From Thermoproteota archaeon (GTDB lineage: Archaea; Korarchaeota; Korarchaeia; Korarchaeales; Korarchaeaceae): DNA of 21,346 bases. Both the position numbers and the translations under genes were made by a program. The notes under the pieces are model-generated. The model had not been told where the DNA came from. It did not search any database and worked only from the letters and a program-made list of their open reading frames with translations. Below are positions 3,099 through 21,346 of the stretch, in pieces. Each line of letters begins with the position of its first letter. Positions within the stretch are counted from its first letter, which is position 1. Location: NCBI GenBank assembly GCA_027491395.1, contig JAOZFI010000009.1:1-21346 (forward strand), read 5' to 3'.

Positions 3099-3099
3099 T

Positions 3100-3126
3100 C
3101 CCCTCTTCTCCCATCTTTTTTACTTT
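3100..3126 (+). terminator. Oligo-T/pyrimidine tract after dppA (partial terminator or processing site)
   Basis: Pyrimidine-rich tract with T6 at 3116-3121, directly after the dppA stop; archaeal terminators are oligo-T. Confidence 0.5.
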
Positions 3127-3164
3127 GTGACTCTTACTGCCCTGATCCATGGGGTGATGTTCTC

Positions 3165-4199
3165 TTGGGAAGTTTAGCCACCTATATCGCCCGGAGATTA
3201 CTCCTAATAATACCCACGCTACTCGGCGTCTCCATACTCATCTTCGCCATATCCATGGTCTTCACCCCTGAGCAGAGGGCCGCTCTCTATGTGACGTCGC
3301 CTAAAGCGGCTTCCAAAATTTACCAGATCATAAAGAAGTACGGGCTGGACAGGCCAGCCCACGAGCAGTACTTCACTTGGCTATCGAATGTCCTTAGGGG
3401 AAATCTGGGCTACTCTAAATCCATGAACATACCAGTCATAAGGGCATTCACCGATCTATGGCCGACCTCGGTGGAGATCGCCATATACGCGGCTCCGTTC
3501 ATAGTACTCGTCGGGGTGAAGCTGGGAAAGATATCAGCCATATACAGGGATAAGCTACCCGATCACATAGCTAGGGTGCTAGCTATCGTGGGATGGTCCC
3601 TGCCTACATTCTGGTCCGCTATCATACTCCTAGCAATATTCTACGGCTGGCTGGGGTGGTTCCCTCCGGGGAGACTCGGGCCCGAGGCCCAAGCCATAGT
3701 CAGGTCGAGCGAGTGGGTCACCTACACTGGCCTGTACACGATAGATGCCCTGCTCAACGGTAACCTGTTTGTCTTCATAGATGCGGTGAGGCATCTCTTC
3801 CTCCCAGTCCTCAACTTGGTCATAGTGGGTAACGCCGGGATAATGAGGGTCATGAGATCCAGCATGCTGGAGGAGCTGAACAAGGAGTACGTCCTCGCCG
3901 CCAGGTCGAAGGGCGTAGCTGAAAGGGACATAATCAACAAGCATGTGACCAGAAACGCCCTTATACCCGTGGTGACCATGGCTGGTGTGTTGGTCGCTGG
4001 ACTGATGACCGGGCTGGTGATAACCGAGACCGTGTTCGAGCTCAAGGGTCTCGGATACTGGGCTGCCCACGCGGCCGAGCAGCTGGATATACCCTCAGTC
4101 TTGGCCTTCGCCCTATTCACTGGTGTGGTCTTCGTGATCGCTAACCTCATCGTGGACGTCCTATACGCCTACATAGACCCGAGAGTGAGGCTCCAGTGA
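3165..4199 (+). CDS. dppB: Peptide ABC transporter permease, 344 aa (TTG start)
   Basis: YIARRLL start, YGLDRP...QY, GNLGYS, EAA-loop equivalent EYVLAARSKG, DPRVR end; RBS GGGGTGA at 3151-3157. Confidence 0.95.
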   Translation: MGSLATYIARRLLLIIPTLLGVSILIFAISMVFTPEQRAALYVTSPKAASKIYQIIKKYGLDRPAHEQYFTWLSNVLRGNLGYSKSMNIPVIRAFTDLWPTSVEIAIYAAPFIVLVGVKLGKISAIYRDKLPDHIARVLAIVGWSLPTFWSAIILLAIFYGWLGWFPPGRLGPEAQAIVRSSEWVTYTGLYTIDALLNGNLFVFIDAVRHLFLPVLNLVIVGNAGIMRVMRSSMLEELNKEYVLAARSKGVAERDIINKHVTRNALIPVVTMAGVLVAGLMTGLVITETVFELKGLGYWAAHAAEQLDIPSVLAFALFTGVVFVIANLIVDVLYAYIDPRVRLQ

Positions 4200-4218
4200 A
4201 GGTTAGGGTGAGTGAAAA

Positions 4219-5154
4219 ATGAGTGTTGCGAAAGAGGTGAAGAAGGTACCCCTCTCCGAGAGGATCTGGTTTAAAGAGCTTAAATTCATGGCTAAGAGGG
4301 TCAGGGAGAGCCCATTATCCTTGGCCGGACTGGCCATAATATTCTTTTACGTGGTGCTGGCCATCCTGGCCCCTTACCTAGCCCCTCCTAAACCGGGAAG
4401 GGATCCCTTCGAGATACCTAGGTACGGTTACGTGATAACGCCCTCCCCTCCCAGTCCGGAGCATCCGTTCGGCCTAACTCAGGGACAGTACGACCTCTTC
4501 TACGGGTGCATCTGGGGGACAGTGACTGCTTTCAGGGTCGGACTGCTGGGAGTGTCTGGCTCCATTCTGATCGGCCTGACCGTGGGTGCTATAGCGGGAT
4601 ACTTCGGCGGTAAGATAGACGAGATCCTCATGAGGATAGTGGACATCGTCTACGCGATTCCCGGCCTAATATTAGCCATGGCTTTCGTCCTCGCGCTCGG
4701 TCAGAGCTTGGACAACGTGATAATAGCCCTGATGCTGGTAGGATGGGCCACCTACGCGAGGCTAACGAGGGCGGGCGTTCTCCAAGTCAAGCAGGAGGAT
4801 TACGTGGAGGCCGCTAGGGCCATAGGCTCTCCACACAGGAGGATACTGCTGAGACACATCCTCCCCAATAGCATATTCCCCGTCTTCGTGGTGGCAACGC
4901 TGGACATAGGTTCAATGGTACTCACCGCCTCCGCCCTGAGCTTCTTGGGCATTGGTGCCCCACTGGGATACGCTGATTGGGGACAGCTGATCGCTCTCTC
5001 CAGGAACTGGCTCATAGGGACTCCAGAGAATCCGTTCGAGTACTGGTACACCTACACGTACCCGGGCATATTCATCTTCACCTTCGTGCTGGGCTGGAAC
5101 CTTCTGGGCGATGCCTTCAGGGACATACTCGATCCCACTCTGAGGAGGAGGTGA
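4219..5154 (+). CDS. dppC: Peptide ABC transporter permease, 311 aa
   Basis: PSPEHPFG, DYVEAARAIG, HILPN, LSFLGIG, NLLGDAFRDILDP. Confidence 0.95.
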   Translation: MSVAKEVKKVPLSERIWFKELKFMAKRVRESPLSLAGLAIIFFYVVLAILAPYLAPPKPGRDPFEIPRYGYVITPSPPSPEHPFGLTQGQYDLFYGCIWGTVTAFRVGLLGVSGSILIGLTVGAIAGYFGGKIDEILMRIVDIVYAIPGLILAMAFVLALGQSLDNVIIALMLVGWATYARLTRAGVLQVKQEDYVEAARAIGSPHRRILLRHILPNSIFPVFVVATLDIGSMVLTASALSFLGIGAPLGYADWGQLIALSRNWLIGTPENPFEYWYTYTYPGIFIFTFVLGWNLLGDAFRDILDPTLRRR

Positions 5155-5158
5155 TCCC

Positions 5159-6325
5159 ATGACTGAGAGGAATGAGGGGAACATAATGGAGGTGAGGGAC
5201 CTCTATGTGAGGTTCTACACCTACGAGGGTGTGGTCAAGGCGGTGGACGGCGTGGACTTGGATGTCCTTAGGGGAGAGACCTTGGGGATAGTGGGAGAGA
5301 CCGGCAGCGGCAAGTCAGTTACCACCTATGCCATGATGAACATGGTCCCACCTCCAGGCAGGATAACTAGGGGCAGGGTGGTCTACAGGAGGGATGGGAA
5401 GGAGTTCGTCCTCACAGAGATGCCGGAGAGCGAGATAAGGAAACTCAGGGGATCTGATATCTCTAGGATATTCCAGGAGCCTAAAGCCGCCCTCAATCCG
5501 GTGTACAAGGTTGGGGATCAGGTCGCAGAGGCGATCCTCATACACAGGCTGGACGAGATGAAGGAGAGGGCGCTGGAGACCCTGAAGAGTGAAAGGGGCG
5601 TATTTCCCTCCCTCAGCAGATCCGTGATTGATAGGTCCCTGAAGTTCGAGGGTGATCCCCTCGTCAGGCTCTTGAAGAGGATACCCCTTCTGAGGAGGCT
5701 CTACTGGAAGCCCATAAAGCGCGAGGCTAGGAAGGAGGTGGTGAAGCTTCTGGGCTTGATGGGGATACCCGATCCGGATAGGGTGTATGACATGTACCCG
5801 CACGAGCTCAGCGGGGGCATGCAGCAGAGGATAGTGATAGCAACAGCGCTCTCCTGCAATCCTCAGCTTCTCATAGCCGATGAACCAACTACAAACTTGG
5901 ATGTCACGGTGGAGGCCCAGATACTTGAGTTGATGAAGGATCTTAAGAAGAAATTCGGGATGACGCTGCTCTACATAACCCACGACATGGGAGTCATCGC
6001 CGAGATGTCCGATCGGGTAGCTGTGATGTACGCAGGCAACATAGTTGAGGTTGGTGACGTCATCACGATATTCAAGAAGCCCCTCCATCCCTACACGAAG
6101 GGCCTTCTGGAAGCTATCCCTATGCCAGGGAGGCCGTTGAAAGACATACCGGGCACCGTGCCGAATCTAATAAACCCCCCATCTGGGTGTCGCTTCCATC
6201 CGAGGTGCGAGTATGCGATGGATAGATGCAAGAGGGAGAAACCGAAGCTGGTAGAGGTTGAACCCGGGCATTGGGTCGCTTGCTTCCTTCACCACGACCA
6301 AGCGGCGGAGGTGGAAGAGGGATGA
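5159..6325 (+). CDS. dppD: Peptide ABC transporter ATP-binding protein, 388 aa
   Basis: Walker A GETGSGKS, signature LSGGMQQR, Walker B LIADEPT, HPY, C-terminal CRFHPRC..C..C cluster. Confidence 0.95.
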   Translation: MTERNEGNIMEVRDLYVRFYTYEGVVKAVDGVDLDVLRGETLGIVGETGSGKSVTTYAMMNMVPPPGRITRGRVVYRRDGKEFVLTEMPESEIRKLRGSDISRIFQEPKAALNPVYKVGDQVAEAILIHRLDEMKERALETLKSERGVFPSLSRSVIDRSLKFEGDPLVRLLKRIPLLRRLYWKPIKREARKEVVKLLGLMGIPDPDRVYDMYPHELSGGMQQRIVIATALSCNPQLLIADEPTTNLDVTVEAQILELMKDLKKKFGMTLLYITHDMGVIAEMSDRVAVMYAGNIVEVGDVITIFKKPLHPYTKGLLEAIPMPGRPLKDIPGTVPNLINPPSGCRFHPRCEYAMDRCKREKPKLVEVEPGHWVACFLHHDQAAEVEEG

Positions 6326-7413
6326 TCTCCTTGGATCACAAAGAGTGGCTTTCCAAGACCGAGGGATCCCTCATCAGAACATACAGGTTGAAAAAGCATT
6401 TTCCAGTCTTGGGCGGCATCCTGAAAAGACCAGTAGCATGGGTCAAGGCCGTCGATGGCGTGGACATGTGGGTCAAGAAGGGGGAGACCCTAGGTCTCGT
6501 CGGGGAATCCGGATGCGGAAAGACCACCTTGGGAAAGACCCTTATAAGGCTGCTGGATCCAACCTCAGGACACATATTCTACGACGTGCCCGAGGACGTG
6601 ATAAAGGAGATTTTGGAGCTCGAAAGTTCAGGAGACAAGTCGAGGCTAAAGGAGCTCAGGAGGAGATACGATCTAGCTTACATGAAAGGGAAGCAGCTGA
6701 AGGAATTTAGGAGGAAGATGCAGATAGTGTTTCAGAATCCCCTCACGGCCCTCAACCCCAGGATGATGGTGAAGGATATAGTGGCCGAGCCCCTCATAGT
6801 CCAGAAGATAGCAAAGGGAGAGGAGGCATACGACATGGCCCTTCAGGCGCTTCAAGAAGTGGGACTCGGGAAGGAGCACATGTGGAGATACCCACATGAG
6901 TTCTCCGGAGGGCAGAGACAGAGGATAGCCATAGCTAGGGCCCTGGTGCTGAAGCCGGACTTCATAGTTCTGGACGAGCCCACATCAGCCGTTGACGTGT
7001 CGGTGAGGGCTAGGCTTCTGAAGCTCTTCAAGGAGCTGCAGAGCAAGTACGGGCTCACGTACCTGTTCATCAGCCACGACCTATCGCAGGTGCAGGTCAT
7101 CAGCGACAGGGTGGCCGTCATGTACTTGGGCAAGATAGTGGAGCTCGCCGATACTAGGGAGATATTCGAGAACCCGATGCATCCCTACACCCAGGCGCTC
7201 TTTTCAGCCAAGCCCGTGCCTGATCCGACAGTCAGGAAGGGGAGGATAGTCTTGAAAGGGGATGTCCCAAGCCCGGTCAATCCGCCGTCCGGGTGTCGCT
7301 TCCACCCGAGGTGCTTCAAAGTCTTCGGGCCGTGTGACAGGGAGGAACCTCCCTTGGTGGAGGTGAAGCCGGGCCACTGGGTAGCCTGCCACCTATACGG
7401 GGAATCTTCATGA
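6322..7413 (+). CDS. dppF: Peptide ABC transporter ATP-binding protein, 363 aa (start moved from 6271)
   Basis: ATG 6322 overlaps the dppD TGA (ATGA); GESGCGKT, FSGGQRQR, VLDEPT, HPY, CRFHPRC..C..C. Confidence 0.93.
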   Translation: MISLDHKEWLSKTEGSLIRTYRLKKHFPVLGGILKRPVAWVKAVDGVDMWVKKGETLGLVGESGCGKTTLGKTLIRLLDPTSGHIFYDVPEDVIKEILELESSGDKSRLKELRRRYDLAYMKGKQLKEFRRKMQIVFQNPLTALNPRMMVKDIVAEPLIVQKIAKGEEAYDMALQALQEVGLGKEHMWRYPHEFSGGQRQRIAIARALVLKPDFIVLDEPTSAVDVSVRARLLKLFKELQSKYGLTYLFISHDLSQVQVISDRVAVMYLGKIVELADTREIFENPMHPYTQALFSAKPVPDPTVRKGRIVLKGDVPSPVNPPSGCRFHPRCFKVFGPCDREEPPLVEVKPGHWVACHLYGESS

Positions 7414-9701: not shown

Positions 9702-10115
9702 TCATTCGAGCGTCAAGCCGCTGATGCGGAGCTTGCCCTCTTTCTCCAGCTCGTGAATCCTTTCAACGACCTTGTATATAGAGAGGTTTGCTTCCTTAGC
9801 TAGCTCATATGGGGATATTCGCCCGCTCTCCTTGGCCGCATTTATAATAATCCTACCCAAATCATCGTCCACGCGCTCGTCTAGCACTTCGATGATCAGT
9901 TCGTATCGAGCCCTCTTATACCTAGGCTCGGAGATGTATATGGCTAAGGAGAGCAGCGCCGATGATATGACCGCCGCTGCGATCGCCGAGTAGAATGTAA
10001 ATGTGGACATTATCGACCTGTACATGAGTGTCAGGAAGATCTCCATCGTGAGGATGGTCAAGCCCCAAGTGGCAGCGACTAGGGCCTTTCTCCTAGTCCA
10101 TACCCGTGGGACCAT
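9702..10115 (-). CDS. Membrane protein with two TM helices and a C-terminal Lrp/AsnC-type winged HTH, 137 aa (start moved from 10181)
   Basis: RBS GGAGGTGA (containing the giant gene's TGA) lies 5 nt before ATG 10115; two hydrophobic segments; DDLGRIIINAAKESGRISPYELAKEANLS...VVERIHELEKEG matches the AsnC HTH pattern. Confidence 0.75.
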   Translation of the reverse strand: MVPRVWTRRKALVAATWGLTILTMEIFLTLMYRSIMSTFTFYSAIAAAVISSALLSLAIYISEPRYKRARYELIIEVLDERVDDDLGRIIINAAKESGRISPYELAKEANLSIYKVVERIHELEKEGKLRISGLTLE

Positions 10116-10120
10116 TGCGA

Positions 10121-13100
10121 TCACCTCCTCTCTTGAGGAGGTCTGGCACCACCCAGCAGGAGGAGCTCGGCAGCCTCCCAAAGATCGAGCCCTGAGTTCT
10201 TGGCCACCTCCAAGGATCTCATAACAAGATCCTCATCCAACACCCGCACATGCAGACTACCGCTAGAAATCAGCTTCTCAACCATGGAAGAGACGGCTGG
10301 GTCGCTTAGAGCCTTGGATGCGGTGGCTTCCGAGATAACCAGCCCGAAAGAGGGCAGATCCCCCCGATCTATCAAGTCCCTGAGTGCGGAGTAGTCTATC
10401 AGCATTGCCTTCCTCCTCCTGAAGATAATAAAAAGTAATATCAGTAGGGACATCGGCATACTAATCATGCCCAGTACGGACTCTCTCATGAGCCCTCTCA
10501 ACTCTAGGGTCGCGCTGGATTCTGGACCGCCTGGGATTCTCGCCCTGTTGGTTAGAGTTCCCCCGAAGATCCACCTCGGATAGCGGGCTACTATGAAAAC
10601 GACGGCAGCACCATCCCGCGCGGAAATGCGGACCTCCCTTCCCTCTATTGAGATGTCCACCCTCTCATGCGAGAGAACCTCCTCTATCTCCATTCCCTCG
10701 GGTAGCTCGTCAACCGCTGTGCTCCCTCTAGGACCCCTTATCCTGAGGATGTACTCCACCAGCCCCCTCCCGGAGTAAATGCCCACCTTTTGCAGGTGCA
10801 CCTCCTCCTCAGGGGGCTTCACCACTATCGTGGACGAGGCGGTCAGGTTCCCCAAGTAGGCCCTGTTGGCCCAAGAGCCTACGCGAGACGCCTTGAATAC
10901 GAAGCTGAAGCTGCGGGATTCGCCCGCACTAAGCTTGTCTATCCTCCATGAAATCCGCCTACCTCTGATTCCCCTACCTAGTAGTGGCACGAGTCCCTCC
11001 GTCGGCTCATCGATGATCAACAGCTCCCTAGCCGTCACATTCCCGGTATTGGTCACCGTTATCCAGCAAACTACCGGATCGCCGACTTCGACCTCGGTGG
11101 GTGAGCAGGTCTTGCTCAGAGAGAGGTTGGCCACGAGCTCGCTGCTGACATTTAAAGGAGAAGTAGCCTTAATCTCGGTTCCTTGAATTCGCTCCTCACC
11201 TCTTCCTTCTCCTGGCGTCATAGGAGCACCCGACGGGCCTTCTGTCGTGATGTTCGGTGTAGGTACCGCGCGGGTCACCGTCATGTTGACTGGCCTCCTC
11301 CCGGTCGTGACGGAGCCCTCACAACGGATGACCGGCTCCCTCAGAATTGCCGCGGACTCGAATCCCCCTCCCACCTTGGTCATGAATGATAGATTACCTC
11401 CCAGCATGGAGAGACCCGTGAAATTCGCTACAATGTAGTAAGAGGGAAATTCGCTTGCCGGACTATCAAGGTGGGCTGGGGAGCTCCAGGAGCTACCTGG
11501 GCCGATTATTGCTCCGGGGTTCTCGCAGAAGACGAGTCTACCAGATTCGGGCTCTCCCTCGTACACACAGATGCTGGTCAGGTTGTAAGAGAGGTCCCCT
11601 GCCCTGTTAGAGAAACTGGCGGAGATGGAGTAGCCCCCGTCAACCCTCTCCTTAACTATGTTGATAGAGGCGGGCCCCACGTACCTCATCTCACCTATGA
11701 GATCTAGGAGGGGTGGATGGGAGCCCCTAATCCTGACCCTTGCGTCGGGGATATGCAGATCCTCTACTACCTCAACCGCGAGAGTCAGACTGAGGGTAGC
11801 CGCATCACCCGAGTGTAGTGGTCCGAGGCGCCACCTAACCACACCACCATCCAAGTCGACGGTACCTGTGGTGGCAGCTGCCCTGATAACAGAGGATGCC
11901 CAGCTTACGGGCTTCATGACCTCGACCTCATCCACATCTCGGGTTGACTCCAGCCTGATACTCAGCTCCACCTCTCTGACCCCACCACAGTTGATCGTTT
12001 GCGGTGTCAGCTCCTCCTCCAGCGTGATGGGAGGCGTGACATCCTTCGGAGCGGTGAAGCGCCACCTAACGTACTCTCCCGGTCCCACCCTCTCCGCCCT
12101 CAGAGGAGGTTCTTCCGCTATCGTCGACGGTACTGGATAATCTGGGTAGAACTCGTAACTAGGGGCGTGAATTGGGATGCGAACGTCGGAGATCTCGTCC
12201 CCCTTAGGATTGATAAGGGTCAGGAAGCCCCAATGCTCTCTCACAACGTAACTCCCGTTATAGTGGAATAATACGTCTAGGAACTCGTCAATCTTTACCT
12301 CTGGCATGCCCGGAGGATCCACACCCACGATGAGGGCTTTTGAGAGCTGAAAATCTGAGGAACCACAGTCAAGTGAGGTCAGCGTGTAGGTGATGGATCT
12401 GGTGCCCTCAGGGGAACCTGACGGCCCCAGCGTCAGGAACCACCAATAAACGCCCCCTGAACTTCCTTGGGGAGTCTCGCTCGGCGATGTCAGGACCATG
12501 CCATCAGGGACCGCATCGTAGACCTTGATGGTGGTCGACCACGGATTTAGATTGCTCGCAGTCAAGATCACTGACAGGCTGCAATCGGACAACGGTTCTA
12601 TGTCCTTCTTGATGGACACGCTCACTGGTTTCTTCTTCACAGCCGGGCCGAACTCGCTGCTACCAATCCCGTTCTTGTACAGAAGGGCGGTGAGTGCGCT
12701 CGAACCATCCGGCTCGGCCCAGTCCGGAAGGGATGACAGATCTAGCATACCCGAGAATTCCCCGTTAGGATCGGTTTCGAGCTTACCCAAGTAGATCCAG
12801 CCCTCCCCGTAAAGCTTGGCGAGCTGTGAGTCACCCGAATAGTCGTTACCTATTAGGTCATCTCCCCCATCCGTGTTATTCACAAGGAACACTAGCACCT
12901 CAGCGTCAGAGAAGGTTGGGCTCCCCTCATACAGATCCTCCCTGTTGACATATCCCTCGACGTAAAGCGTATCGGAAACTGGGTCGTAGCTGAAGTCCGT
13001 TATTATGGGGTAGTCTACACCCTGATTCGGCAGTTCCGGCCTCAGAATCCCGTCGTTGACGGTCACATTGTCCCCCACCGGTTGGGATGGGTGAGTGGTA

Positions 13101-16100
13101 TCGAGGTCAATGCCCACTTCTCCGTTAGAGAATATGGAGTTAACCAGAATGGAGTTATTCACGCTCACCTCGGAACCGCCTGACCAGTTGGCGATGACAA
13201 CACCCGGCCCAGCATTTTCGTAGATAACACTGGCGTTCAGCAGAGTGCCATTACCGAATATCCTGATGCCCCCATCTTCTCCCTGATCAGCCACTACGCC
13301 ATTTCCACTGACGTTAACTTCCTCAATCACATTTCCTCCTATCCCATTCCAGCTGTCGAAACCGTATGCGGCGTTATCATGTATGTAGGAGCACCTCAGG
13401 ATGACACCCCCGGCCCCCTCCTCGACCGATACGCCGTCCTCTAGGCCGTTGACCAACCCGTTGGAGAAGACCTCAACACCCTCGATCGTACCCTCGAAGG
13501 GTCCCCCCTCCACATGAATCCCGGTGTAGCCATTGTAGGCGACTAGGCTGGATGTCACGTTGAAGCTGGGCCCACCCGACGAGTTAACCTCGATTCCCTC
13601 AGCACCATTCCTCGCGAGTCCGTAGGTGGAGGGATCATCGCCATTCGATGTGAGCCCCACTAGAAGCTGTGAGAGCGATATGTTCCCCATACTACCGGTT
13701 CCGTTCAAGACTAGGGCACCGCCCGGATAACTGGAGCCGAACCCGTAGAGGGAGATCCGGCTGACCCACGTGTTACTCGCATTTATCACTATCCCACTAC
13801 CATCCAGTCCATTGCCGTATATCTCCAGTTCCGGCTTCTCGACTCCTCCCAGCGTGCATTCATCACCGGTCCCGGGTATCCCATCCGGACCAGTCCCCAC
13901 CCTTCCAATGGATCCGACCACGCCGGGATTGGAGTTCCTGACTGCCATGTTCGGGTAGAACACCGTCCCGTTTAGCGAGGCCCCAGCTGAATCGTTGAAG
14001 GACGGAAGCTGGCCCAAGGTGTGATTGATCTCTATCCTCCACGATCCGGCGTAGGCCACATTAGGGTCGACCATCATCACGAAGTAGCTCCTCTGATATC
14101 CCTTCACAGCGTTCGCGTTAACTATGAATTGTCTCAGGCTACCCTGAGCATACTTCAGTTCGTTAGTCTTGGCGTAGATGGAACCGGGACGTTCGAAGAC
14201 CCAGTAGGCGACCTGTTCCGTGGTATGCCTCCTCTCAGAATCTGAAAGCGTGTCCTTATCGATGGCTAGGTGAAGCTCGTTAGTTATGGGATCGTCGCCG
14301 AAAAGAACAGCCCATCCACCATAAGTTCCGTCCATCGCGCTCTGAGTAACCACTCCCACCGTGAAGGTCCCACTCAGGCTGTAAACGTAGGGAGGGGAAT
14401 CACCCACCCCTTGAACGGTGTCTGGTCCAAGCTGAGCCTCGTAGCCCAAGCCCCCGGTCGATCCCTTACCGGCCTCCACTATCACGACACCTAGCAGCTC
14501 GTCACTCCTGTAAGTGACGGGATCCTCGCCGACGTGTTTGCCAACGTAAAGGTTGCTGGAGTCAGGTGGTTCCGTCCTATCGCCGTTGCTATCCCAGAAC
14601 ACTGACCACCTGCTGTCGTTGTAACTCATTACCTGACCTAGGACCACAGGGGATGTGTATGCCCAGACGTAAGGGACATGCTCCATGAGAGAAGCATCCC
14701 AGTTGTTGTTGTCGTTGGTTCCGTGTGATACCACTCTGTGCGCCTCTACCTTCCTCCCATCATCGAGTTCCCAGCTTCCCTCCTCCATCACGAGGCAGTG
14801 GACATCTCTAGGGGTGACGGGCTTCCCGGATGGATTCTGTATCCTCACCTTGAAGGAGTAATGGGAGACATCCTTTATCCTGACTACTGCCTCGTTGTCA
14901 GAGCTGCTCGGAAGGTTGTGGGTGCACACAACGACCGGGCTCTCATAGAAGTGGTGGGTGAAAACGGGTACCCATGAGCTCCCGACGTTTTGGAGCTTGA
15001 ACACTTCTCCAATGGCCTTTACCGGGTTTTTCATTCTATCTAGAGTGTTAACCACCACCTCGTAGCTGAAGCCGAAGTCCAAGCTCTCTCCTGAGTATAT
15101 GGATGGATCTACCTCGACATAGTGCTCAGGTTGGCCATTCTCCATATCACCCATATTTGGATCTTTGCCCCCAAAGCTCTGAACTAGGGTCCACGAGCTT
15201 CCATCCCACTCCCTGTGGAAGGTCTCCTCTGCCCAGACATCGTCCCAAGTATAGCCCGGATTTAATCCCCTCACCGAGATGATGGTACTGGAGTCTACCA
15301 CCACGTAGACCTTACCATTGTGTACGGAGTGGAGAACGTACCTACCGGAGGAATCCGTTATCTCGGAGTCTATGATCTTATCACCGAAATCGAAGACACC
15401 ATCGCCGTCATCTCTGTATAAGAGGATTCTCACATTCGGGATGCCCACATCATCGGAATCGAGGGCGCCTAGAACACCAAAGTCCTCATACACTCTACCC
15501 TGAATCGGCCAACTGACGTATATAGTTACGTTTTGGGGGTGGGTTACGCCATTAGTCTCTACGGCCCTCACCTCCACGGTGTAAATCCCGAAATCGCTAA
15601 GAGAGAACTGGTACCTGTAGATCCTCCAGAAGGGAGGGGATCCAGGATCCTCGGATATGAGACCCATATTGTCTGTCAGGATGAGGTTATCGCTCTGATC
15701 GAATACATTTATCACCACATCAGATATGTCGTAGGCTCCAATGGGATCAGTCACATTTGCGGTGACTGTGATGGTGTCACCGGGGGAGTAATCCTCGCTG
15801 TCGGTTTCCACTTGGGCCACCTTGATGTATGTGAAGGTGCTCACCTCAACCTTGGAGGGATGCGAGCTGTCGTGAGCTATATAGAGAGGATACGGGGCTT
15901 GGTTCTTTATCCTCAAGACTAGATAGCTGCCCTTCGGAATGGACACTTGGTTGGTCAGCGGCATGGTGAACGAGTAGGGGCTTGAGGAGGGGTTCAGAGT
16001 GACCATCTGCTCCACGCTACCTATGACCGTAACGGAGTCGCCGTCTGTGTATAAGAGGTCAATCACCACGTCATGGTCCTCGTAGAAATAGAAATAGCTC

Positions 16101-19100
16101 CTCAAGTAGAGGGTTACCGTTACATCCCCCGAGATAACGAACTCACCCGAAAAAGGAGGACTTTGAGTCCAAGAATCCAGCGAGTTGGACAGGATTGTAG
16201 TCTCGCTGCTGGACACTGTGGGTACGGTCGTGTTGAGGGTGTGATCAGCGTCACCATGGAGATAGAACTGTTTCTCCACATTACCGGGATGTATGGTGTC
16301 CGTGTAAAGAGATACCGTGTCGTACACGGCGGTGTCGCTGATCTTGGTGAAGTTCAATTCGGTGAGATCGACCTCGCCCATCGGCGCCGTGGACGGCACT
16401 ATCTTCCTCACGGTCAAATTGGTCTCTCCAAGCGGTAAGAGGAGGTCTGGGAGACCATTTCCGTTCGAATCGTATCCTATAGCGATGAAATCCCATATGC
16501 CATCGCCATCCGAGTCCTCGGCTATTAGGGTGTCGCCTTCGTAAAGCTCAGTGGCCCATCCCTTCGTGGACTGAATTATGCTAACGTCGAACCTCTCCTC
16601 CTCATCGTAATTGTATGCGGTAACATTGTACTCTGCCTCACTTCCCGGGTACACCTTCTCCTCCTGATCCGGTTCTACGGAAAACGTGGTGACATAGATA
16701 ACTATACTCTTGGCATCATTCGAAGTGTTCTGATCGCCTGGAAGTTCGGAGCTCACAGTGATGTTGTAAGCTCCGGGTGATAGGGAGACCACGTCTAGGG
16801 AGAAGCTGACCTGAGCCGTCTCGTTGTGGGGGACGTAAAGACTCACGTACTTTGTTTGGGTAGATGAGTAGCCTCCTCCAATCTTCTCCACTGCCATCTT
16901 TATGGGAACGTCCTCTTCATCGACTATCCCGTACAGGGCAGCGGTGGCGTTGATCCATATGGTGCTATTAACGTGGGGATTCACTCTACTTCCATTCTCC
17001 GGAGTATCTATGCTTTTTATCCCTACATCGTGCAGCTGTGAAAGTCCGTCGTTGATCTGATCAAGCATGTCGTTCATATCGTACCCTAGGCCCCAGATCA
17101 CCGGTACAACCCAGACCTCTCCGGGGGCTAGAGAATCTCTATCCCAAGCCAAGGCTGTACCAGCGTCTCCCTCATAGCTGGACGAGTTGGTGAGCCTGTC
17201 GTATAGGATGTCCGTCCACACGGTTCCGTAGTGCCCCACTTCGTGGAGGGAGCTGGGCTGTTCCGCCCTGAAACCACCGTACTCTATATCTCCGGGGGGA
17301 GCGTTACTATCATATCCATACACCACATCGTTAGACGAATCGTAGTAAGAGTCATCATCATAGTAGTCTCCATTGAAGTTCCAGTCCATGCCTTGGAAGA
17401 ACCTCAGATTCGTGTACGTATTGGAAGTCGGATTCCTCAGGTAGTAGATGGTGGCAAACCACCTCTTATTATCCCTTATTATAGTCTTCTGGGTTATGTT
17501 CAACTCATATCCGCTCCACTGGGCCTGCATCTCCGTTATTATGACGCTCTCCAGCATACCATTAGGAACAGTGTTTGCCGAGACATTCTCCCTGCTTATC
17601 TCGGTGAGAAAGTAGTTGCCCGTCCAATAGAAATCCCCATCATTCCCGTACTGCCTGGTTCCACCATCTGTAGTGTACCTGACGGCTATCTTCGAACCAG
17701 CGTCCGCATCTATGTCATTAGCCCAGTTGTCCTCCGTTCTACCAGCATGGTCATAACTGGCGATTGTGGAGGAGCTATCTCCCTGAGAATAGGGGAATAC
17801 TATGGCTGAGAGCTGACCTGCCTCCACCTCCTCTATGGCCACGGAATTGTTCGGGCCTGGGGGTATGAGCGTGATGTCGTAACCGGTAATAGGATCATCG
17901 AAAAAGTAAAGAACTCCATCGTCAACGTACCACCTGATCTCCCCTTCCACCTCCCCCGTTGACCTGTTCACCTTGATGTCATTCACTATGACCCTCCCAT
18001 CGTCCCCCACTATCTTACCCACCCTGTATCCTTGGGGGATCTTCACGGAGAACCTGTAATTTATCTCGAGCTTGCCCTTGACCCCCAGCCTTATTACAGT
18101 CTCGTTCACTCGCCTCGATGTGATAACAGTATTGAGAACCTCCCCAGGGAGACCAAACCTTCTTAACAGTTCTGATGTAGCTGGCAGCTCATATTCCGAG
18201 ATATTTAACCTCCCTATCCGCCTTACTACCTTTTTCAGGGCTTTAATCCCCATGGAAAGCATTTTCACGACCAGCTTATCTGGTGAAGGAGATCTGACAA
18301 CTATCCTCCTAGATACGGGATCGTAGGCCACGGAGAAGCCTTCCCCCCTGTGGGGTCCCGCCGATGGCCAACTCTTTGATCCCTTTATCGTCAGGGAGAG
18401 GGAGAATGTCCTTCCCCAGGCGGTTAGCAGTACACTATGCACCCCCTCCGAGAGGATCACGGGTATGATGAAGTTCCCATTATCCAGACTCGTATTTCCC
18501 CCCACCCCATCGACCTCGTAAGACAGGAAGGGGGGAGGGAGTATCTGGTACTCTACGCGTCCTACTATGCCTTTATCCTCCTCATAGGTGAGCTCGAACT
18601 CGTAACAATCCACAACGAAGTGATCCTCTACGCCATCTACTTCAACACTGTAATTGCCAAGCAGCACGCTGGAATTGAGCGGGTAGGTCGATTCCCAATG
18701 ATCCCCAGATCTCTCGAATACCAGAGGTACGATCCTACCTTCTGGATCCACAAGGCTGGCGGAGCTGGGCTTGAATCGAGCCCTGACGACAACCATATCT
18801 CCCGGGAAGTACACCTCCCTCTCCAACTCCACTCCTCTATCCATTAGCGGCAACGAGAGCTGAGAACTACCGCATCTCAACTCGACTTCACGCTCATCGG
18901 GAGGCACGGATATGATGAAGGTCCCATTAACTACCTCTGCAGCCCCTTCCAAGCCGCTGGAGAATCTGTACCTGACCTCCTTGGGAGGGACGAAGTAGTA
19001 GGAGACCGTTCCTCTGACGAACCCATCTCGGTAGCTGGCGTTCAGCTCGTAATAGTCAACGTAGAAGTCTGCTGTCGAGTTTCCGAGGGAGACCCTGTAA

Positions 19101-19858
19101 AGTCCCAGCATTACTGAGGAGTTCAGAGGTAAGCTAGCTGTCCATGCATCACCCGAATGATTCAGTGGGAGGGCAATGGTCCTATTGTCAGGAAGGATGA
19201 CCGTGAGCTCCTCTTGAGTTGGGGGGATCGAGGTCACCCTGACGACAACCACATCTCCCGGGAAGTACACCTCCCTCTCCAGCTCTATCATCCCGTGTTG
19301 GGTTTCAGGGTTCACCTCACTCATCTCATGCACTGACACCTCTTCAACGAGTTCTCCGGTCAGGTTCCCGCTGGTAGCCACTATTTTGAGGGTGTAATTG
19401 CCCGTAGGGAGATTAAAAGGCTCTGTACTTCCTACTGAGGTCAAATACATGTCACCTTCTGGGGTTACGACAGTCACGTTCGCTGAGAGTGGGGAGCCTG
19501 TTAGCTCTGAGAAAGTACTGACTACGAACCCTCCACCCCCCTTCCTGAGCTCAACATCTATCCTGTCGAGAACAAAGGAGTAGCTTCCATCGGTCCAAGT
19601 AATTTTGTATGTGCCTAGGGGAAGGGAGCTGGTGTTCAGGATCAAGACATCACCAGCCCAAGAAGCGAATTCGGGTGGGGAAGAGAGATCGATGGTATAT
19701 ATCGTGCCGTTAGGGAAGACCAAGTTGACAGGGGTTTCAGGAATCTTAACCTCTAATCGAAGCCCGGGAGAGATGACCACCGGAGCACCCGAGACTATGA
19801 GATGAGGGAAGGCGACCTGGATCGCGAGCAGTACGAGAAGGAAGGCCGCCCCCCTCAT
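10121..19858 (-). CDS. Giant multidomain cell-surface adhesin-like protein, 3245 aa
   Basis: Uninterrupted ORF; signal peptide; Ig/MG2-like repeats (YFPGD); CARDB-like, SdrD-B-like and lectin-like segments; parallel beta-helix; DUF11-like domains; TM plus RRRK; about 95-aa cytoplasmic tail; many N-x-S/T sequons; RBS GGAGGT overlapping the upstream stop. Confidence 0.9.
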   Translation of the reverse strand: MRGAAFLLVLLAIQVAFPHLIVSGAPVVISPGLRLEVKIPETPVNLVFPNGTIYTIDLSSPPEFASWAGDVLILNTSSLPLGTYKITWTDGSYSFVLDRIDVELRKGGGGFVVSTFSELTGSPLSANVTVVTPEGDMYLTSVGSTEPFNLPTGNYTLKIVATSGNLTGELVEEVSVHEMSEVNPETQHGMIELEREVYFPGDVVVVRVTSIPPTQEELTVILPDNRTIALPLNHSGDAWTASLPLNSSVMLGLYRVSLGNSTADFYVDYYELNASYRDGFVRGTVSYYFVPPKEVRYRFSSGLEGAAEVVNGTFIISVPPDEREVELRCGSSQLSLPLMDRGVELEREVYFPGDMVVVRARFKPSSASLVDPEGRIVPLVFERSGDHWESTYPLNSSVLLGNYSVEVDGVEDHFVVDCYEFELTYEEDKGIVGRVEYQILPPPFLSYEVDGVGGNTSLDNGNFIIPVILSEGVHSVLLTAWGRTFSLSLTIKGSKSWPSAGPHRGEGFSVAYDPVSRRIVVRSPSPDKLVVKMLSMGIKALKKVVRRIGRLNISEYELPATSELLRRFGLPGEVLNTVITSRRVNETVIRLGVKGKLEINYRFSVKIPQGYRVGKIVGDDGRVIVNDIKVNRSTGEVEGEIRWYVDDGVLYFFDDPITGYDITLIPPGPNNSVAIEEVEAGQLSAIVFPYSQGDSSSTIASYDHAGRTEDNWANDIDADAGSKIAVRYTTDGGTRQYGNDGDFYWTGNYFLTEISRENVSANTVPNGMLESVIITEMQAQWSGYELNITQKTIIRDNKRWFATIYYLRNPTSNTYTNLRFFQGMDWNFNGDYYDDDSYYDSSNDVVYGYDSNAPPGDIEYGGFRAEQPSSLHEVGHYGTVWTDILYDRLTNSSSYEGDAGTALAWDRDSLAPGEVWVVPVIWGLGYDMNDMLDQINDGLSQLHDVGIKSIDTPENGSRVNPHVNSTIWINATAALYGIVDEEDVPIKMAVEKIGGGYSSTQTKYVSLYVPHNETAQVSFSLDVVSLSPGAYNITVSSELPGDQNTSNDAKSIVIYVTTFSVEPDQEEKVYPGSEAEYNVTAYNYDEEERFDVSIIQSTKGWATELYEGDTLIAEDSDGDGIWDFIAIGYDSNGNGLPDLLLPLGETNLTVRKIVPSTAPMGEVDLTELNFTKISDTAVYDTVSLYTDTIHPGNVEKQFYLHGDADHTLNTTVPTVSSSETTILSNSLDSWTQSPPFSGEFVISGDVTVTLYLRSYFYFYEDHDVVIDLLYTDGDSVTVIGSVEQMVTLNPSSSPYSFTMPLTNQVSIPKGSYLVLRIKNQAPYPLYIAHDSSHPSKVEVSTFTYIKVAQVETDSEDYSPGDTITVTANVTDPIGAYDISDVVINVFDQSDNLILTDNMGLISEDPGSPPFWRIYRYQFSLSDFGIYTVEVRAVETNGVTHPQNVTIYVSWPIQGRVYEDFGVLGALDSDDVGIPNVRILLYRDDGDGVFDFGDKIIDSEITDSSGRYVLHSVHNGKVYVVVDSSTIISVRGLNPGYTWDDVWAEETFHREWDGSSWTLVQSFGGKDPNMGDMENGQPEHYVEVDPSIYSGESLDFGFSYEVVVNTLDRMKNPVKAIGEVFKLQNVGSSWVPVFTHHFYESPVVVCTHNLPSSSDNEAVVRIKDVSHYSFKVRIQNPSGKPVTPRDVHCLVMEEGSWELDDGRKVEAHRVVSHGTNDNNNWDASLMEHVPYVWAYTSPVVLGQVMSYNDSRWSVFWDSNGDRTEPPDSSNLYVGKHVGEDPVTYRSDELLGVVIVEAGKGSTGGLGYEAQLGPDTVQGVGDSPPYVYSLSGTFTVGVVTQSAMDGTYGGWAVLFGDDPITNELHLAIDKDTLSDSERRHTTEQVAYWVFERPGSIYAKTNELKYAQGSLRQFIVNANAVKGYQRSYFVMMVDPNVAYAGSWRIEINHTLGQLPSFNDSAGASLNGTVFYPNMAVRNSNPGVVGSIGRVGTGPDGIPGTGDECTLGGVEKPELEIYGNGLDGSGIVINASNTWVSRISLYGFGSSYPGGALVLNGTGSMGNISLSQLLVGLTSNGDDPSTYGLARNGAEGIEVNSSGGPSFNVTSSLVAYNGYTGIHVEGGPFEGTIEGVEVFSNGLVNGLEDGVSVEEGAGGVILRCSYIHDNAAYGFDSWNGIGGNVIEEVNVSGNGVVADQGEDGGIRIFGNGTLLNASVIYENAGPGVVIANWSGGSEVSVNNSILVNSIFSNGEVGIDLDTTHPSQPVGDNVTVNDGILRPELPNQGVDYPIITDFSYDPVSDTLYVEGYVNREDLYEGSPTFSDAEVLVFLVNNTDGGDDLIGNDYSGDSQLAKLYGEGWIYLGKLETDPNGEFSGMLDLSSLPDWAEPDGSSALTALLYKNGIGSSEFGPAVKKKPVSVSIKKDIEPLSDCSLSVILTASNLNPWSTTIKVYDAVPDGMVLTSPSETPQGSSGGVYWWFLTLGPSGSPEGTRSITYTLTSLDCGSSDFQLSKALIVGVDPPGMPEVKIDEFLDVLFHYNGSYVVREHWGFLTLINPKGDEISDVRIPIHAPSYEFYPDYPVPSTIAEEPPLRAERVGPGEYVRWRFTAPKDVTPPITLEEELTPQTINCGGVREVELSIRLESTRDVDEVEVMKPVSWASSVIRAAATTGTVDLDGGVVRWRLGPLHSGDAATLSLTLAVEVVEDLHIPDARVRIRGSHPPLLDLIGEMRYVGPASINIVKERVDGGYSISASFSNRAGDLSYNLTSICVYEGEPESGRLVFCENPGAIIGPGSSWSSPAHLDSPASEFPSYYIVANFTGLSMLGGNLSFMTKVGGGFESAAILREPVIRCEGSVTTGRRPVNMTVTRAVPTPNITTEGPSGAPMTPGEGRGEERIQGTEIKATSPLNVSSELVANLSLSKTCSPTEVEVGDPVVCWITVTNTGNVTARELLIIDEPTEGLVPLLGRGIRGRRISWRIDKLSAGESRSFSFVFKASRVGSWANRAYLGNLTASSTIVVKPPEEEVHLQKVGIYSGRGLVEYILRIRGPRGSTAVDELPEGMEIEEVLSHERVDISIEGREVRISARDGAAVVFIVARYPRWIFGGTLTNRARIPGGPESSATLELRGLMRESVLGMISMPMSLLILLFIIFRRRKAMLIDYSALRDLIDRGDLPSFGLVISEATASKALSDPAVSSMVEKLISSGSLHVRVLDEDLVMRSLEVAKNSGLDLWEAAELLLLGGARPPQERR
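18781..19285. repeat. 49-bp direct repeat pair (18781-18829 and 19237-19285), 47/49 identical, marking a 152-aa tandem duplication
   Basis: CCCTGACGACAACCAYATCTCCCGGGAAGTACACCTCCCTCTCCARCTC occurs twice, 456 bp apart; both copies encode ELEREVYFPGD(V/M)VVVR. Confidence 0.9.
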
Positions 19859-19862
19859 ATCA

Positions 19863-20609
19863 CTACCTCCTGAGCCTGACCAGGATGAGAGCGAGAATCA
19901 GGAGTATTATCCCACCCCAGATGACGAAGTAACCATGGAAAGGCATGCGAGGGAGCGGGATACGGCTGAACTCCACCGATATCTTGAAGGAACCTCTTGA
20001 CCTCGTTCCAGATATATCCCATGATTCGCCCTCTAACGGGGGATCGGAGAAGGTTATCCTTTGATTTGGGGGAGGTATAACCCTGAGCGTGCCCTCCTTC
20101 ACCGTATTGGACAGGGGTCCTAAGGAGAAATCCATCTCGTCGAAGAGAACCCCTTTCGCAATCGCCCCGTCGATCCTGAAGATCAACCTGATCCTCTCAA
20201 CATCTCCTGGCTTGAGAGGTTGCCAAAGCGAGTACCTTATCGCACGCGTCCCATTCTTGGTGATGATCAGCGCCTCCATCTTCCTCCTGGTGTCTAAATT
20301 CTCAGCTTCCAAGATGCTTATACTCCCGTTTGAAGTCTTTTCGGAGGGGAGGGGCAATCCTAGGAAGGTCTCCCGCTGAGAGACCGTGAGGGGAATCAAT
20401 CCATACCCGGGTACTACCATGACCTTGCCCTCGTTCCTCAGGGCCGCCGTGAACTCTACTAGGGCTGAGCCGTTAGGAAGCGCCCTCACGACAACGTCCA
20501 ATCTCTCATACACCAAGGGATTGTATTCGGGAGGGAGAGTTTGCTGGGCTCCGACCATAATGGAGGAAGCTGCTAGCATAAGGAGGCACAGGATGACGAA
20601 GGGGCGCAT
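19863..20609 (-). CDS. Secreted, C-terminally membrane-anchored beta-rich protein, 248 aa (start moved from GTG 20621)
   Basis: RBS GGGTGA 8 nt before ATG 20609; signal peptide ending VGA; C-terminal EFSRIPLPRMP-TM-RLRR; stop 4 nt from the giant gene start. Confidence 0.85.
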   Translation of the reverse strand: MRPFVILCLLMLAASSIMVGAQQTLPPEYNPLVYERLDVVVRALPNGSALVEFTAALRNEGKVMVVPGYGLIPLTVSQRETFLGLPLPSEKTSNGSISILEAENLDTRRKMEALIITKNGTRAIRYSLWQPLKPGDVERIRLIFRIDGAIAKGVLFDEMDFSLGPLSNTVKEGTLRVIPPPNQRITFSDPPLEGESWDISGTRSRGSFKISVEFSRIPLPRMPFHGYFVIWGGIILLILALILVRLRR

Positions 20610-20628
20610 CGGGGGATTCACCCTGATT

Positions 20629-20653: not shown

Positions 20654-21346
20654 TCAGGAGCCCATGAGCATGCTGTGATGCCCCGCTCCTCTCCTCGATC
20701 GCCTTCTGATTTCCATCACCGCCTCGGCAGATATGAGCACTACGGCTAGGAGAAACATCCACGGCTCTATGTTGAATGAGGTGACTCTCATTCCCGTGAA
20801 GGGTGTGAACACAGAGTTGACATCTAAGGTGTTTCTTGGGTCCACACCGACCACGAAGATGTCCGTCACATTGTAGTCACCGCTTCCCAGAACGCAATAG
20901 TGCACGAAAACTGGATTATAGACGTCTATGTCTAAGTTGTCGTAGTGTCCCTTGGCGGTCACTACAACGTAGCCCCCACCGGTAGCGACTGAGTCCTGTA
21001 CGAACTCAACCTTGAAGTAGGTGTCTGCAGCGTCGTCAGATGAATCGGCAAGGAACTCCCCTCCCTCGGCGTAGCTGGTGGAGTTTATGCTCACTGTGCT
21101 GGCATCTATCACCTGCACGTCCCAGTCCCTAGTGCTGCCATCCTTCATGGTGACCGTGATGGTCTTGGTTATGCTGGTGTCTGGGAACCACTCGGCGAAC
21201 CCGCGCTGGACCGGCAGCGGGTAGACCTTCCAGACGTAACCCTTGGTGTACCCTGACGGGCTGGTTATCAGAGAGTAGTCCGGTGGACTGCTGGGGTTGG
21301 CGTCCTGAGCTAGCATGTTCAGAGGGTAGAGCTTCATGTTACCCTC
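20654..21346 (-). CDS. C-terminal part (at least 230 aa) of a membrane-anchored surface protein, probably truncated by the window edge
   Basis: Frame is open to the window end (GAG GGT AAC before ATG 21337) and there is no signal peptide at that Met; the C-terminus has VGVDP, EPW, a TM helix and RRRSRR. Confidence 0.85.
   Translation of the reverse strand, partial: EGNMKLYPLNMLAQDANPSSPPDYSLITSPSGYTKGYVWKVYPLPVQRGFAEWFPDTSITKTITVTMKDGSTRDWDVQVIDASTVSINSTSYAEGGEFLADSSDDAADTYFKVEFVQDSVATGGGYVVVTAKGHYDNLDIDVYNPVFVHYCVLGSGDYNVTDIFVVGVDPRNTLDVNSVFTPFTGMRVTSFNIEPWMFLLAVVLISAEAVMEIRRRSRRGAGHHSMLMGS

Follow-up and report, generated by a model that had tools for sequence, protein, structure and literature searches.

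PIN domains are nucleases, mostly toxins, and a few eukaryotic cases are known as inert binding modules. In structures of VapBC toxin–antitoxin pairs the antitoxin covers the active-site face of the PIN domain, and PIN proteins of the DUF3368 type usually have an antitoxin of the UPF0175 family. We know of almost nothing on envelope signaling in the archaeal group considered here, the Korarchaeota. Table 1 of PMC5499597 lists 2mdt as a solved structure for COG2405/DUF3368, a family of the VapC group whose active-site residues are entered there as '2-5 (+/-)', and the same paper describes Utp23 as an apparently inactive nuclease. Surface-layer proteins of Thermoproteota are described as normally finishing in a short basic tail after a transmembrane (TM) segment (bioRxiv 10.64898/2026.08.21.746120). 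The stretch of DNA analyzed here, referred to as the window, is a whole contig of 21,346 bases (JAOZFI010000009.1) from a korarchaeal genome of 1.72 Mb (G000; 62 contigs, 98.4% complete, 1.93% contamination), and it encodes a giant surface protein, presumably an adhesin or S-layer protein, that continues for 95 residues past its C-terminal TM helix and basic cluster. These residues are a genuine cytoplasmic domain, and we hold with moderate confidence that this tail is a dead PIN-like domain, domesticated from a DUF3368-type PIN, that docks a winged-helix protein with two TM helices encoded directly downstream. The features involved are as follows.

10121..19858, minus strand: giant surface-protein open reading frame (ORF) of 3245 amino acids (aa), from the ORF and its translation.
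10853..11125, minus strand: DUF11 domain of the ectodomain, residues 2912-3002 (PF01345, E 2.6e-15, 57.2 bits, cut-off 24.6).
10421..10477, minus strand: C-terminal TM helix, approximately residues 3128-3146 (...GMISMPMSLLILLFIIF), read from the translation.
10409..10420, minus strand: basic cluster RRRK (AGG AGG AGG AAG), from the translation.
10124..10408, minus strand: cytoplasmic tail, residues 3151-3245, from AlphaFold2 (AF2) models, fold searches, hhalign profile comparisons and a residue table.
10119..10128, minus strand: Shine-Dalgarno sequence GGAGGTGATC of the partner gene, formed by the two final Arg codons of the giant ORF together with its TGA stop.
9702..10115, minus strand: partner gene of 137 aa, from its translation, Pfam, the partner alignment A4 and predicted tail binding.

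From its N-terminus the giant protein has a hydrophobic, signal-like segment, then a long ectodomain, one TM helix near the C-terminus and finally the cytoplasmic tail; apart from DUF11, all matches to Ig-like Pfam domains are under cut-off. Its C-terminal sequence is SMPMSLLILLFIIFRRRKAMLIDYSALRDLIDRGDLPSFGLVISEATASKALSDPAVSSMVEKLISSGSLHVRVLDEDLVMRSLEVAKNSGLDLWEAAELLLLGGARPPQERR, followed by the stop codon at 10121-10123. The RRRK cluster works as a positive-inside stop-transfer signal, and the tail beyond it starts with AMLIDYSAL and finishes with PPQERR. The original prediction, made from the sequence of the window, had the protein running about 95 aa beyond TM-RRRK, and it does so, with every string quoted there found in the 3245-aa translation. 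Sorting signals of the sortase or archaeosortase type end within a few residues of a TM helix and basic cluster, whereas here 95 residues under selection follow RRRK.

Conservation of the tail and of its fusion to the TM helix can be read directly from related genomes. A search with the last 193 residues matched 20 of 41 genomes at E<=1, and the orthologous open frames (3264, 3241, 3328, 3206, 2970, 3124, 2865 and 2670 aa) give matches that run through the TM helix into the tail. No stop codon was reported inside these matches, and none lies between TM helix and tail in any of the 32 tails extracted from loci of relatives, all of which are preceded by a hydrophobic run and a basic cluster and end their ORF. 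In a comparison with a 90%-identical relative (G002), the ratio of nonsynonymous to synonymous substitution rates (dN/dS) is 0.13 for the tail, at a dS of 0.34; the 98 codons before it give 0.14 and the gene downstream 0.18, and the last residues, QERR, are identical in the two genomes. The possibility that the tail is a separate PIN gene joined by a frameshift or a lost stop is rejected because the fusion is conserved and under purifying selection. The last 95 residues are thus a genuine domain of the giant protein.

The domain is widespread within its lineage. A profile built from 24 tails (A1), on which all residue counts given out of 24 rest and whose residue numbers follow a 96-residue numbering, finds matches in 28 of the 43 genomes searched from the phylum (E<=1e-5); by rank these are 19 of 20 in the window's genus and 26 of 35 in its family, with 0/2, 0/2, 1/2 and 0/1 elsewhere. 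Besides the 24 sequences that built A1, ten genomes gave new hits (G004, G009, G010, G011, G014, G020, G043, G044, G047 and G048). Named database matches to the profile all belong to Candidatus Korarchaeum or Korarchaeota. In all, six matches were found among proteins of 283-2000 aa and four among those of 48-282 aa, and all are TM-plus-tail proteins or fragments of them; one, from Ca. Korarchaeum cryptofilum, is annotated as a 'DUF11 domain-containing protein' (1267 aa) and has Beta_helix, NosD and DUF11 domains, and the four short ones comprise three C-terminal fragments that still have the TM helix and one partial tail. A single-sequence phmmer search against 1.84 billion representatives returned two true relatives and two low-complexity false matches. 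These database searches found no soluble stand-alone tail, an 89-aa protein (P0003) being a possible exception. A midpoint-rooted tree of the 32 extracted tails defines the following subfamilies.

A-short, the window clade: tails of 89-100 aa, support 96/91.
A-full: tails of 117-135 aa, not monophyletic.
B, on proteins of ~1260-1320 aa: tails of ~123 aa, support 100/100.
C: tails of ~100 aa, support 97/99.
D: tails of 147-161 aa, support 82/79.

The window's own genome carries three tail-bearing ORFs. We note that its B-type proteins, on contigs C34 (1148-5083, minus strand) and C62 (39841-41439, minus strand), have near-identical C-terminal stretches as printed and share a convergent neighbor; this may reflect double assembly of a single locus or the presence of two strains.

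The gene that follows the tail starts 5 nt past the stop codon of the giant ORF, with a spacing of 8 nt from the GGAGG of its Shine-Dalgarno sequence to its ATG (10115). Its product starts with a basic stretch, which is followed by two TM helices, a short strand (YELIIEVL) and, at the C-terminus, a winged helix in the cytoplasm. The A1 profile and a partner profile, A4, built from 11 homologous sequences, were run over the six-frame ORFs of 34 loci, in which 31 tail-bearing loci could be assessed, a locus that stops at a contig edge being left out. A gene matching A4 lies directly downstream of 18 of the 31 tail ORFs (A-type 11/11, C-type 7/7), although these counts come from related species whose loci are not independent, such that they overstate the support and show conserved linkage within subfamilies only. 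Five of the 18 (L011, L025, L054, L055 and L057) are independent of the building of A4. The start codon falls 1-6 nt after the tail stop in most loci, and C-type partners carry an extra N-terminal helical domain. In the tree the midpoint root separates the partner-bearing subfamilies (A-short, A-full and C) from the other two, with weak support for the split (72/68).

A predicted complex of the tail with the cytoplasmic part of the partner (residues 62-137), folded with alignments A1 and A4, respectively, gave an interface score (ipSAE) of 0.78, with 0.78, 0.78 and 0.77 in three runs and 0.01 for the best of three controls; it passes a mark that 116 of 157 solved complexes reach, as do 2 of 215 mismatched pairs, counts that are a rough guide only, given our use of alignments of our own. 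At least 95% of contacts recur between runs, and the partner has a predicted local distance difference test (pLDDT) score of at least 86. The model thus supports binding of tail and partner without demonstrating it. On the tail, the predicted contacts involve residues 28-29 and 32, where the helix following strand 2 begins, 57-60 after strand 3, 63-71 in helix 4, and 76-78 and 81 at the start of helix 5; on the partner they involve residues 70-71, 102-103, 112-124, 131 and 134. By their position in the HTH_24 match, partner residues 112-124 would be the third, DNA-reading helix of the helix-turn-helix (HTH) domain. PIN active sites sit at the C-terminal ends of strands, and for that reason the predicted binding site probably overlaps the former active-site face. 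The B-type tails, which have no partner gene, are gapped exactly at columns 66-71, the helix-4 core of this interface, and D-type tails are charged there, whereas A-type tails keep L58, [VI]64, L67, A70 and [LV]77.

We propose that the tail is a docking module whose binding face, made up of helices 4 and 5 and the end portions of strands 2 and 3, where a PIN active site would lie, takes up the winged helix of the two-TM protein translated 5 nt past the tail stop. The contact would be made mainly through the partner helix that normally reads DNA, such that the giant surface protein could hold, and possibly silence, a membrane-tethered regulator-like protein. Because the DNA-reading helix may be covered, the pair might switch that regulator by sequestering it. 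The suggestion in the original prediction that the tail serves as an interaction domain for the adjacent HTH protein agrees both with their co-occurrence in 18 of 31 loci and with the complex model. Its further suggestion of a toxin–antitoxin-like pair survives as an analogy only, as the partner is unrelated to UPF0175 and lies downstream rather than upstream, and two tail subfamilies have no partner. A specific UPF0175-type antitoxin identity for the partner was rejected on an hhalign comparison (2.6%).

Beyond the relatedness of the loci counted, several points weigh against the docking proposal; those that touch the PIN assignment are taken up with the profile comparisons. The HTH matches of the partner in Pfam are all under cut-off (HTH_24, E 0.0017; AsnC-type, 0.0068; MarR, 0.032), and conservation of interface residues of the partner, Y114 for example, is confined to the window's genus-level clade. 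The comparison of interface deletions is post hoc, having been made after the interface was seen, and the tail structures and the complex are all predictions. An A4-type partner was not found in 13 of the 31 assessable loci (B-type 0/9, D-type 0/4). The domain must therefore have a role that needs no such partner, and, B- and D-type tails being without one, its ancestral role must be something other than partner docking. The main rival reading is built on this: the tail would be a partner-independent cytoplasmic module that clusters or stabilizes surface proteins by self-association, which is the obvious candidate for the ancestral role, or that binds something else in the cytoplasm, and the gene for the two-TM winged-helix protein would be a merely co-inherited neighbor in some of the subfamilies. 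The 13 loci without a partner keep the domain and its invariant D6, Y7, T30 and D37, the window's own genome has one strong partner-family gene against three tail-bearing ORFs, and PIN domains usually dimerize, as in VapC structures. This reading leaves unaccounted for the score of the complex model against its controls, the partner start codon just past the tail stop in most loci, and the fact that it is the partner-less B-type tails that lack the predicted interface helix. We regard it as possible, if somewhat unlikely, and a partner-independent role and partner docking are not mutually exclusive.

Other genes stand in or extend this position at some loci. Two D-type loci, L010 (2039-2518, plus strand) and L056 (2047-2520, plus strand), have downstream of the tail a different protein of ~158 aa, with a two-TM hairpin that resembles the partner's, including a Y..TEP motif after the second TM helix, but with a helical C-terminus and no winged helix; it falls below the A4 profile threshold. 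Five A-full loci (L008, L009, L011, L054 and L055) have a third gene on the same strand after the partner, of ~290-410 aa and in some cases cut by the end of the locus, whose product has a secreted domain, a TM helix and then cytoplasmic ArsR-like winged helices, two of which are visible where the frame is complete (L054 and L055). The window has no such gene, since a convergent epimerase gene comes next.

A more elaborate form of the docking proposal is that the giant protein and the two-TM winged-helix protein are an outside-in signaling device derived from a toxin–antitoxin-like PIN:HTH pair, in which the dead PIN tail would at rest bury the DNA-reading helix of a membrane-tethered regulator, to be released onto DNA by a surface event such as attachment, tension, shedding or turnover of the giant protein, or in which a soluble copy of the tail, made from an internal start, would titrate the regulator; we consider this doubtful. 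The internal start can be weighed by itself. It supposes that the tail is also, or instead, made as a soluble protein of ~94 aa from the ATG of MLIDY, with the RRR-coding AGGAGGAGG run as ribosome-binding site. The sequence AGG AGG AGG AAG GCA ATG is present in the window (10403-10420, minus strand) and in G002, and similar ones in G006 and G012, so placing a Shine-Dalgarno-like run 6 nt before the Met; many other loci have a start codon within ~12 nt of the basic cluster, and the 89-aa database protein P0003 begins at the equivalent Met. However, that Met is missing in G008 (GILLDY) and at that position in all A-full, C and D tails, and P0003 may stem from gene calling on a fragmentary contig. 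AGG is the commonest Arg codon of the giant ORF (94 of 147), so the Shine-Dalgarno-like run may reflect codon usage only, and GTG or ATG codons are expected there by composition because the residues of strand 1 are V, I, L or M. Translation from this start is thus highly unlikely.

Returning to the PIN-like character of the docking tail, its descent is suggested by profile comparisons with DUF3368-type proteins, all taken from genomes other than that of the window, and with PF01850 PINs. The hhalign comparisons gave the following values.

Tail family against six true DUF3368 proteins of related genomes: 93.2%, E 3e-7, 88 columns.
Tail family against ten PF01850 PINs of the window's own genome: 91.2%, E 1e-6, 82 columns.
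Tail family against the unrelated partner family, as control: 0.2%, E 0.32, 9 columns.
DUF3368 set against PF01850 set: 20%, E 0.0011, 26 columns.
Five D-type tails (147-161 aa) against true DUF3368 proteins: 97.3%, E 2e-11, 130 columns.
D-type tails against PF01850 PINs: 2.8%, E 0.016, 55 columns.
Window clade alone against D-type tails: 97.9%, E 6e-13, 83 columns.
Window clade alone against DUF3368 proteins: 0.4%, E 0.14, 40 columns.

The match between D-type tails and DUF3368 proteins takes in the C-terminal helical extension, the feature that separates DUF3368 from PF01850 PINs here. The link from the window tail to DUF3368 is transitive, since the window clade matches the D-type tails and these match DUF3368, while the direct comparison fails. 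The PADLOC models PDC-S70 behave in the same manner: the three true DUF3368 proteins scanned match at E 5e-41, 3e-38 and 6e-23, and three of the four D-type tails scanned match at 6.6e-8, 1.3e-4 and 2.9e-3. PADLOC had nothing for the tail of the window, its partner, or tails of the A-full, B and C types. PDC-S70 covers the DUF3368 proteins from end to end and is therefore the more useful model for their PIN core. In contrast, the Pfam model of the family, PF11848, has 46 positions and represents only the C-terminal helical extension, covering the last ~45 residues of the true, ~160-aa members L032, L038 and L039, a region that is absent from the window tail. In L038 a UPF0175 antitoxin gene lies upstream of the true DUF3368 gene. 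A PF11848 search of 31 genomes gave no match in the window's own genome, and one match in a long frame (G009, 605 aa) is not a tail. PF01850, the model of ordinary PINs, matches 36 times in the own genome. Taken together, the profile comparisons suggest, by way of the D-type tails, a PIN-like domain descended from VapC-like PINs of the COG2405/DUF3368 type.

The predicted structures are consistent with this descent. The AF2 model of the window tail, made with the 24-tail alignment, has a mean pLDDT of 83.4, three strands in the order b1-a-b2-a-a-b3-a-a, and some ten disordered residues at its end. Foldseek against the PDB gave no match at E<=1e-3 for it, with a best E of 0.03 and VapC or PIN proteins in the top rows, and in the fold search VIA-wide its best matches (5x3t_B and 1w8i_A) have a Z of 7.1, a value in the range that VIA-wide warns is common; by title, 15 of the top 22 rows are VapC, VapBC, toxin–antitoxin, PIN, Nob1 or FitAB entries (Z 7.1-4.9). 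A family-level relative, the 128-aa tail of G023, which is 40% identical to that of the window, is predicted as a complete five-stranded alpha/beta domain (pLDDT 92.2; predicted template-modeling score, pTM, 0.84). Foldseek returned six matches for it at E<=1e-3, five of them chains of Pyrobaculum PAE2754, which we take to be a PIN protein, although the record title does not state so, and the sixth an archaeal RuvB-like helicase. Its best VIA-wide match is SSO1118 of Sulfolobus solfataricus (2mdt), with a Z of 12.3 and a root-mean-square deviation of 2.5 over 105 aligned residues; rows 1-39 are all PIN-type with Z>=7.5, and unrelated alpha/beta folds start at 5.8. In the ESM Atlas, the named neighbors are PF01850 clusters (0.90 and 0.89). 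The PIN superfamily is defined by three alpha/beta/alpha layers with a parallel five-stranded sheet; the modeled full-length tail of G023 has this arrangement, and that of the window has strands 1-3 only.

There are several observations that would fit an alternative in which the PIN likeness is no more than a similar small alpha/beta layout and the tail family arose in korarchaea without kinship to PINs. Neither Pfam nor NCBIfam has a PIN or DUF3368 model that matches the window tail, whose best Pfam matches, both under cut-off, are TbsP_N (E 0.008) and FilR1_middle (0.11), and Pfam scans of four long tails (L010, L008, L009 and L002) gave nothing relevant, PF11848 included. Member by member, the 24 tails match TbsP_N in four cases (best E 2.9e-4, under cut-off) and PIN in one (0.059). 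The direct comparison of the window clade with DUF3368 and the middling Z of its model could be read in the same way, as could a match of the tail profile to the DP2 motif of yeast STI1 (2llw_A, E 4e-4, 24 columns). Against this stand the D-type comparison over 130 columns and its PDC-S70 counterpart, the control value, and the best match of a full-length tail being a DUF3368-family structure, with a clean drop after the PIN rows; we find an unrelated origin very hard to credit.

The STI1 and TbsP_N matches deserve a comment of their own. The former was the sole product of a sequence-profile search of the PDB and is treated here as motif-level; it covers tail residues ~22-41 (window 10285-10345, minus strand) with the pattern 'T..AM.DPE...', within which T30...D37-P38 is nearly invariant among tails, and it may be a chance match at that level. 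The latter, found for the window tail and three other A1 tails, is to the N-terminal domain of the haloarchaeal regulator TbsP, the fold of which is called unknown in PMC11023807, where it is described as fused to a MarR-like HTH. As four of the tails match TbsP_N, under cut-off, and TbsP_N is joined to an HTH domain, it may also be a degenerate PIN-like domain, linked to its HTH in one chain.

Whatever its role, the tail looks nuclease-dead from its residues. PIN enzymes have three to four conserved acidic residues at the metal site, and among the tails the first Asp alone is conserved (D6, 24/24). In both hhalign alignments, to DUF3368 and to PF01850, the PIN Glu falls on the column of K33 of the window, which holds Lys 14, Arg 8, Val 1 and Glu 1 times and is thus Lys or Arg in 22 of 24. 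The column aligned by hhalign with the third acidic residue is A, S, V or L, and the Glu of the 'WE' pair (E79) is Glu or Asp in 8 of 24 only. The strand with the last Asp is absent from the window clade, which has neither strand 4 nor strand 5, and is mostly substituted in longer tails. The other conserved residues are Y7 (23/24), T30 (23/24), D37 (23/24) and D76 (20/24). With only the first acidic residue conserved and the strand of the last Asp lost, the tail would not count as a nuclease within the PIN superfamily. An active, membrane-tethered PIN ribonuclease acting as a toxin-like effector can be practically dismissed, since the invariant first Asp, the PIN-like fold and the existence of membrane-anchored PINs such as PIN.COG4956 with four TM helices (as described in PMC5499597) are outweighed by the basic residue at the Glu position, the unconserved third position and the missing fourth-Asp strand.

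Much of this had been anticipated. The original prediction read the first Asp of the window tail as kept, the middle Glu as lost (it is Lys) and the final Asp strand as lost, all correctly for this sequence; the Glu at E79, which it equated with the 'GE' of DUF3368 and saw as kept, is present here and is poorly conserved in the family. Its PIN fold is supported by the AF2 models and by two independent fold searches. Its assignment to the DUF3368 type is supported by way of the D-type tails and finds no backing in the direct comparison or in Pfam.

A plausible history is that an ancestor within the Korarchaeota fused a DUF3368-type PIN behind the membrane anchor of surface proteins, that the fused domain then lost its nuclease site, and that the window clade additionally lost strands 4 and 5. 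Because A-full, B and D tails all keep these strands, the simplest reading is that the window clade was truncated secondarily. A toxin-type PIN would thus have been joined to the inner end of membrane-anchored surface proteins across the Korarchaeota, its active site gone and three strands left in one clade. If the predicted contact is true, it would offer a concrete, testable case of a toxin–antitoxin scaffold reused as a link from surface to cytoplasm in archaea. A literature search on this architecture returned no description of a PIN-like cytoplasmic end of giant TM-anchored surface proteins, of its restriction to Korarchaeota, or of a pairing with a two-TM winged-helix protein.

The remainder of the window gives context for the giant ORF. 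Two genes for small surface-anchored proteins lie upstream of it.

19863..20621, minus strand: secreted protein of 252 aa that ends directly after its TM helix and RLRR; no Pfam family.
20654..21346, minus strand: surface-protein gene that runs off the contig end and whose product terminates 12 residues past its TM helix and RRRSRR; no Pfam family.

The long tail is thus a peculiarity of the giant protein, since these two neighbors end 0-12 residues past their TM helix and basic cluster. At 1227-7413 (plus strand) there is an ordinary oligopeptide-type ATP-binding cassette (ABC) transporter operon, which codes for a solute-binding protein, two permeases and a pair of ATPases that carry oligo_HPY domains; genes for a short-chain dehydrogenase, a flavin reductase and an NAD-dependent epimerase flank it.

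Among known systems, COG2405/DUF3368 (PF11848), represented by SSO1118, is the closest to the tail: it provides the best structural match of a full-length tail, it shares profile homology with D-type tails through the C-terminal helical extension, and it already has members predicted to be inactive, to judge from its entry in PMC5499597. Its proteins are soluble, stand alone at ~120-180 aa and usually lie beside an upstream UPF0175-type gene, as in L038. In contrast, the korarchaeal domain is fused behind the TM anchor of proteins of up to ~3300 aa and keeps the first acidic residue only, and in the window it is without strands 4 and 5 and the whole region modeled by PF11848. Type II VapBC systems resemble this locus in that a PIN-fold protein and a protein of DNA-binding type are encoded side by side, with predicted binding at the PIN active-site face. 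They differ in having an active toxin and a small upstream gene of a known antitoxin family, whereas the korarchaeal partner lies downstream, is anchored by two TM helices, has a winged helix, is unrelated to UPF0175 and matches no PADLOC model, and the predicted contact is through the third helix of the winged helix, not through a C-terminal antitoxin tail.

The inactive PIN binding modules Utp23 and SMG5, both of which are among the structural matches (4mj7 and 2hwy), share with the tail the PIN fold, the loss of acidic residues and a non-nuclease role; they are eukaryotic, soluble and RNA-associated, and the korarchaeal tail is archaeal, membrane-tethered and truncated. PIN.COG4956 (YacL-like) is likewise a membrane-tethered PIN, described in PMC5499597 as having four N-terminal TM helices, a TRAM domain and three to four acidic residues and as mostly bacterial, whereas the korarchaeal protein crosses the membrane with one TM helix, is without a TRAM domain, and carries a giant ectodomain on the opposite face. 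Finally, PySLP-like surface-layer proteins of Thermoproteota, as described in bioRxiv 10.64898/2026.08.21.746120, have a large immunoglobulin-like (Ig)-rich ectodomain, to which that of the giant protein is likened by description, a single C-terminal TM helix and a cytoplasmic basic stretch; the korarchaeal proteins extend this plan by a folded domain 91-161 aa long.

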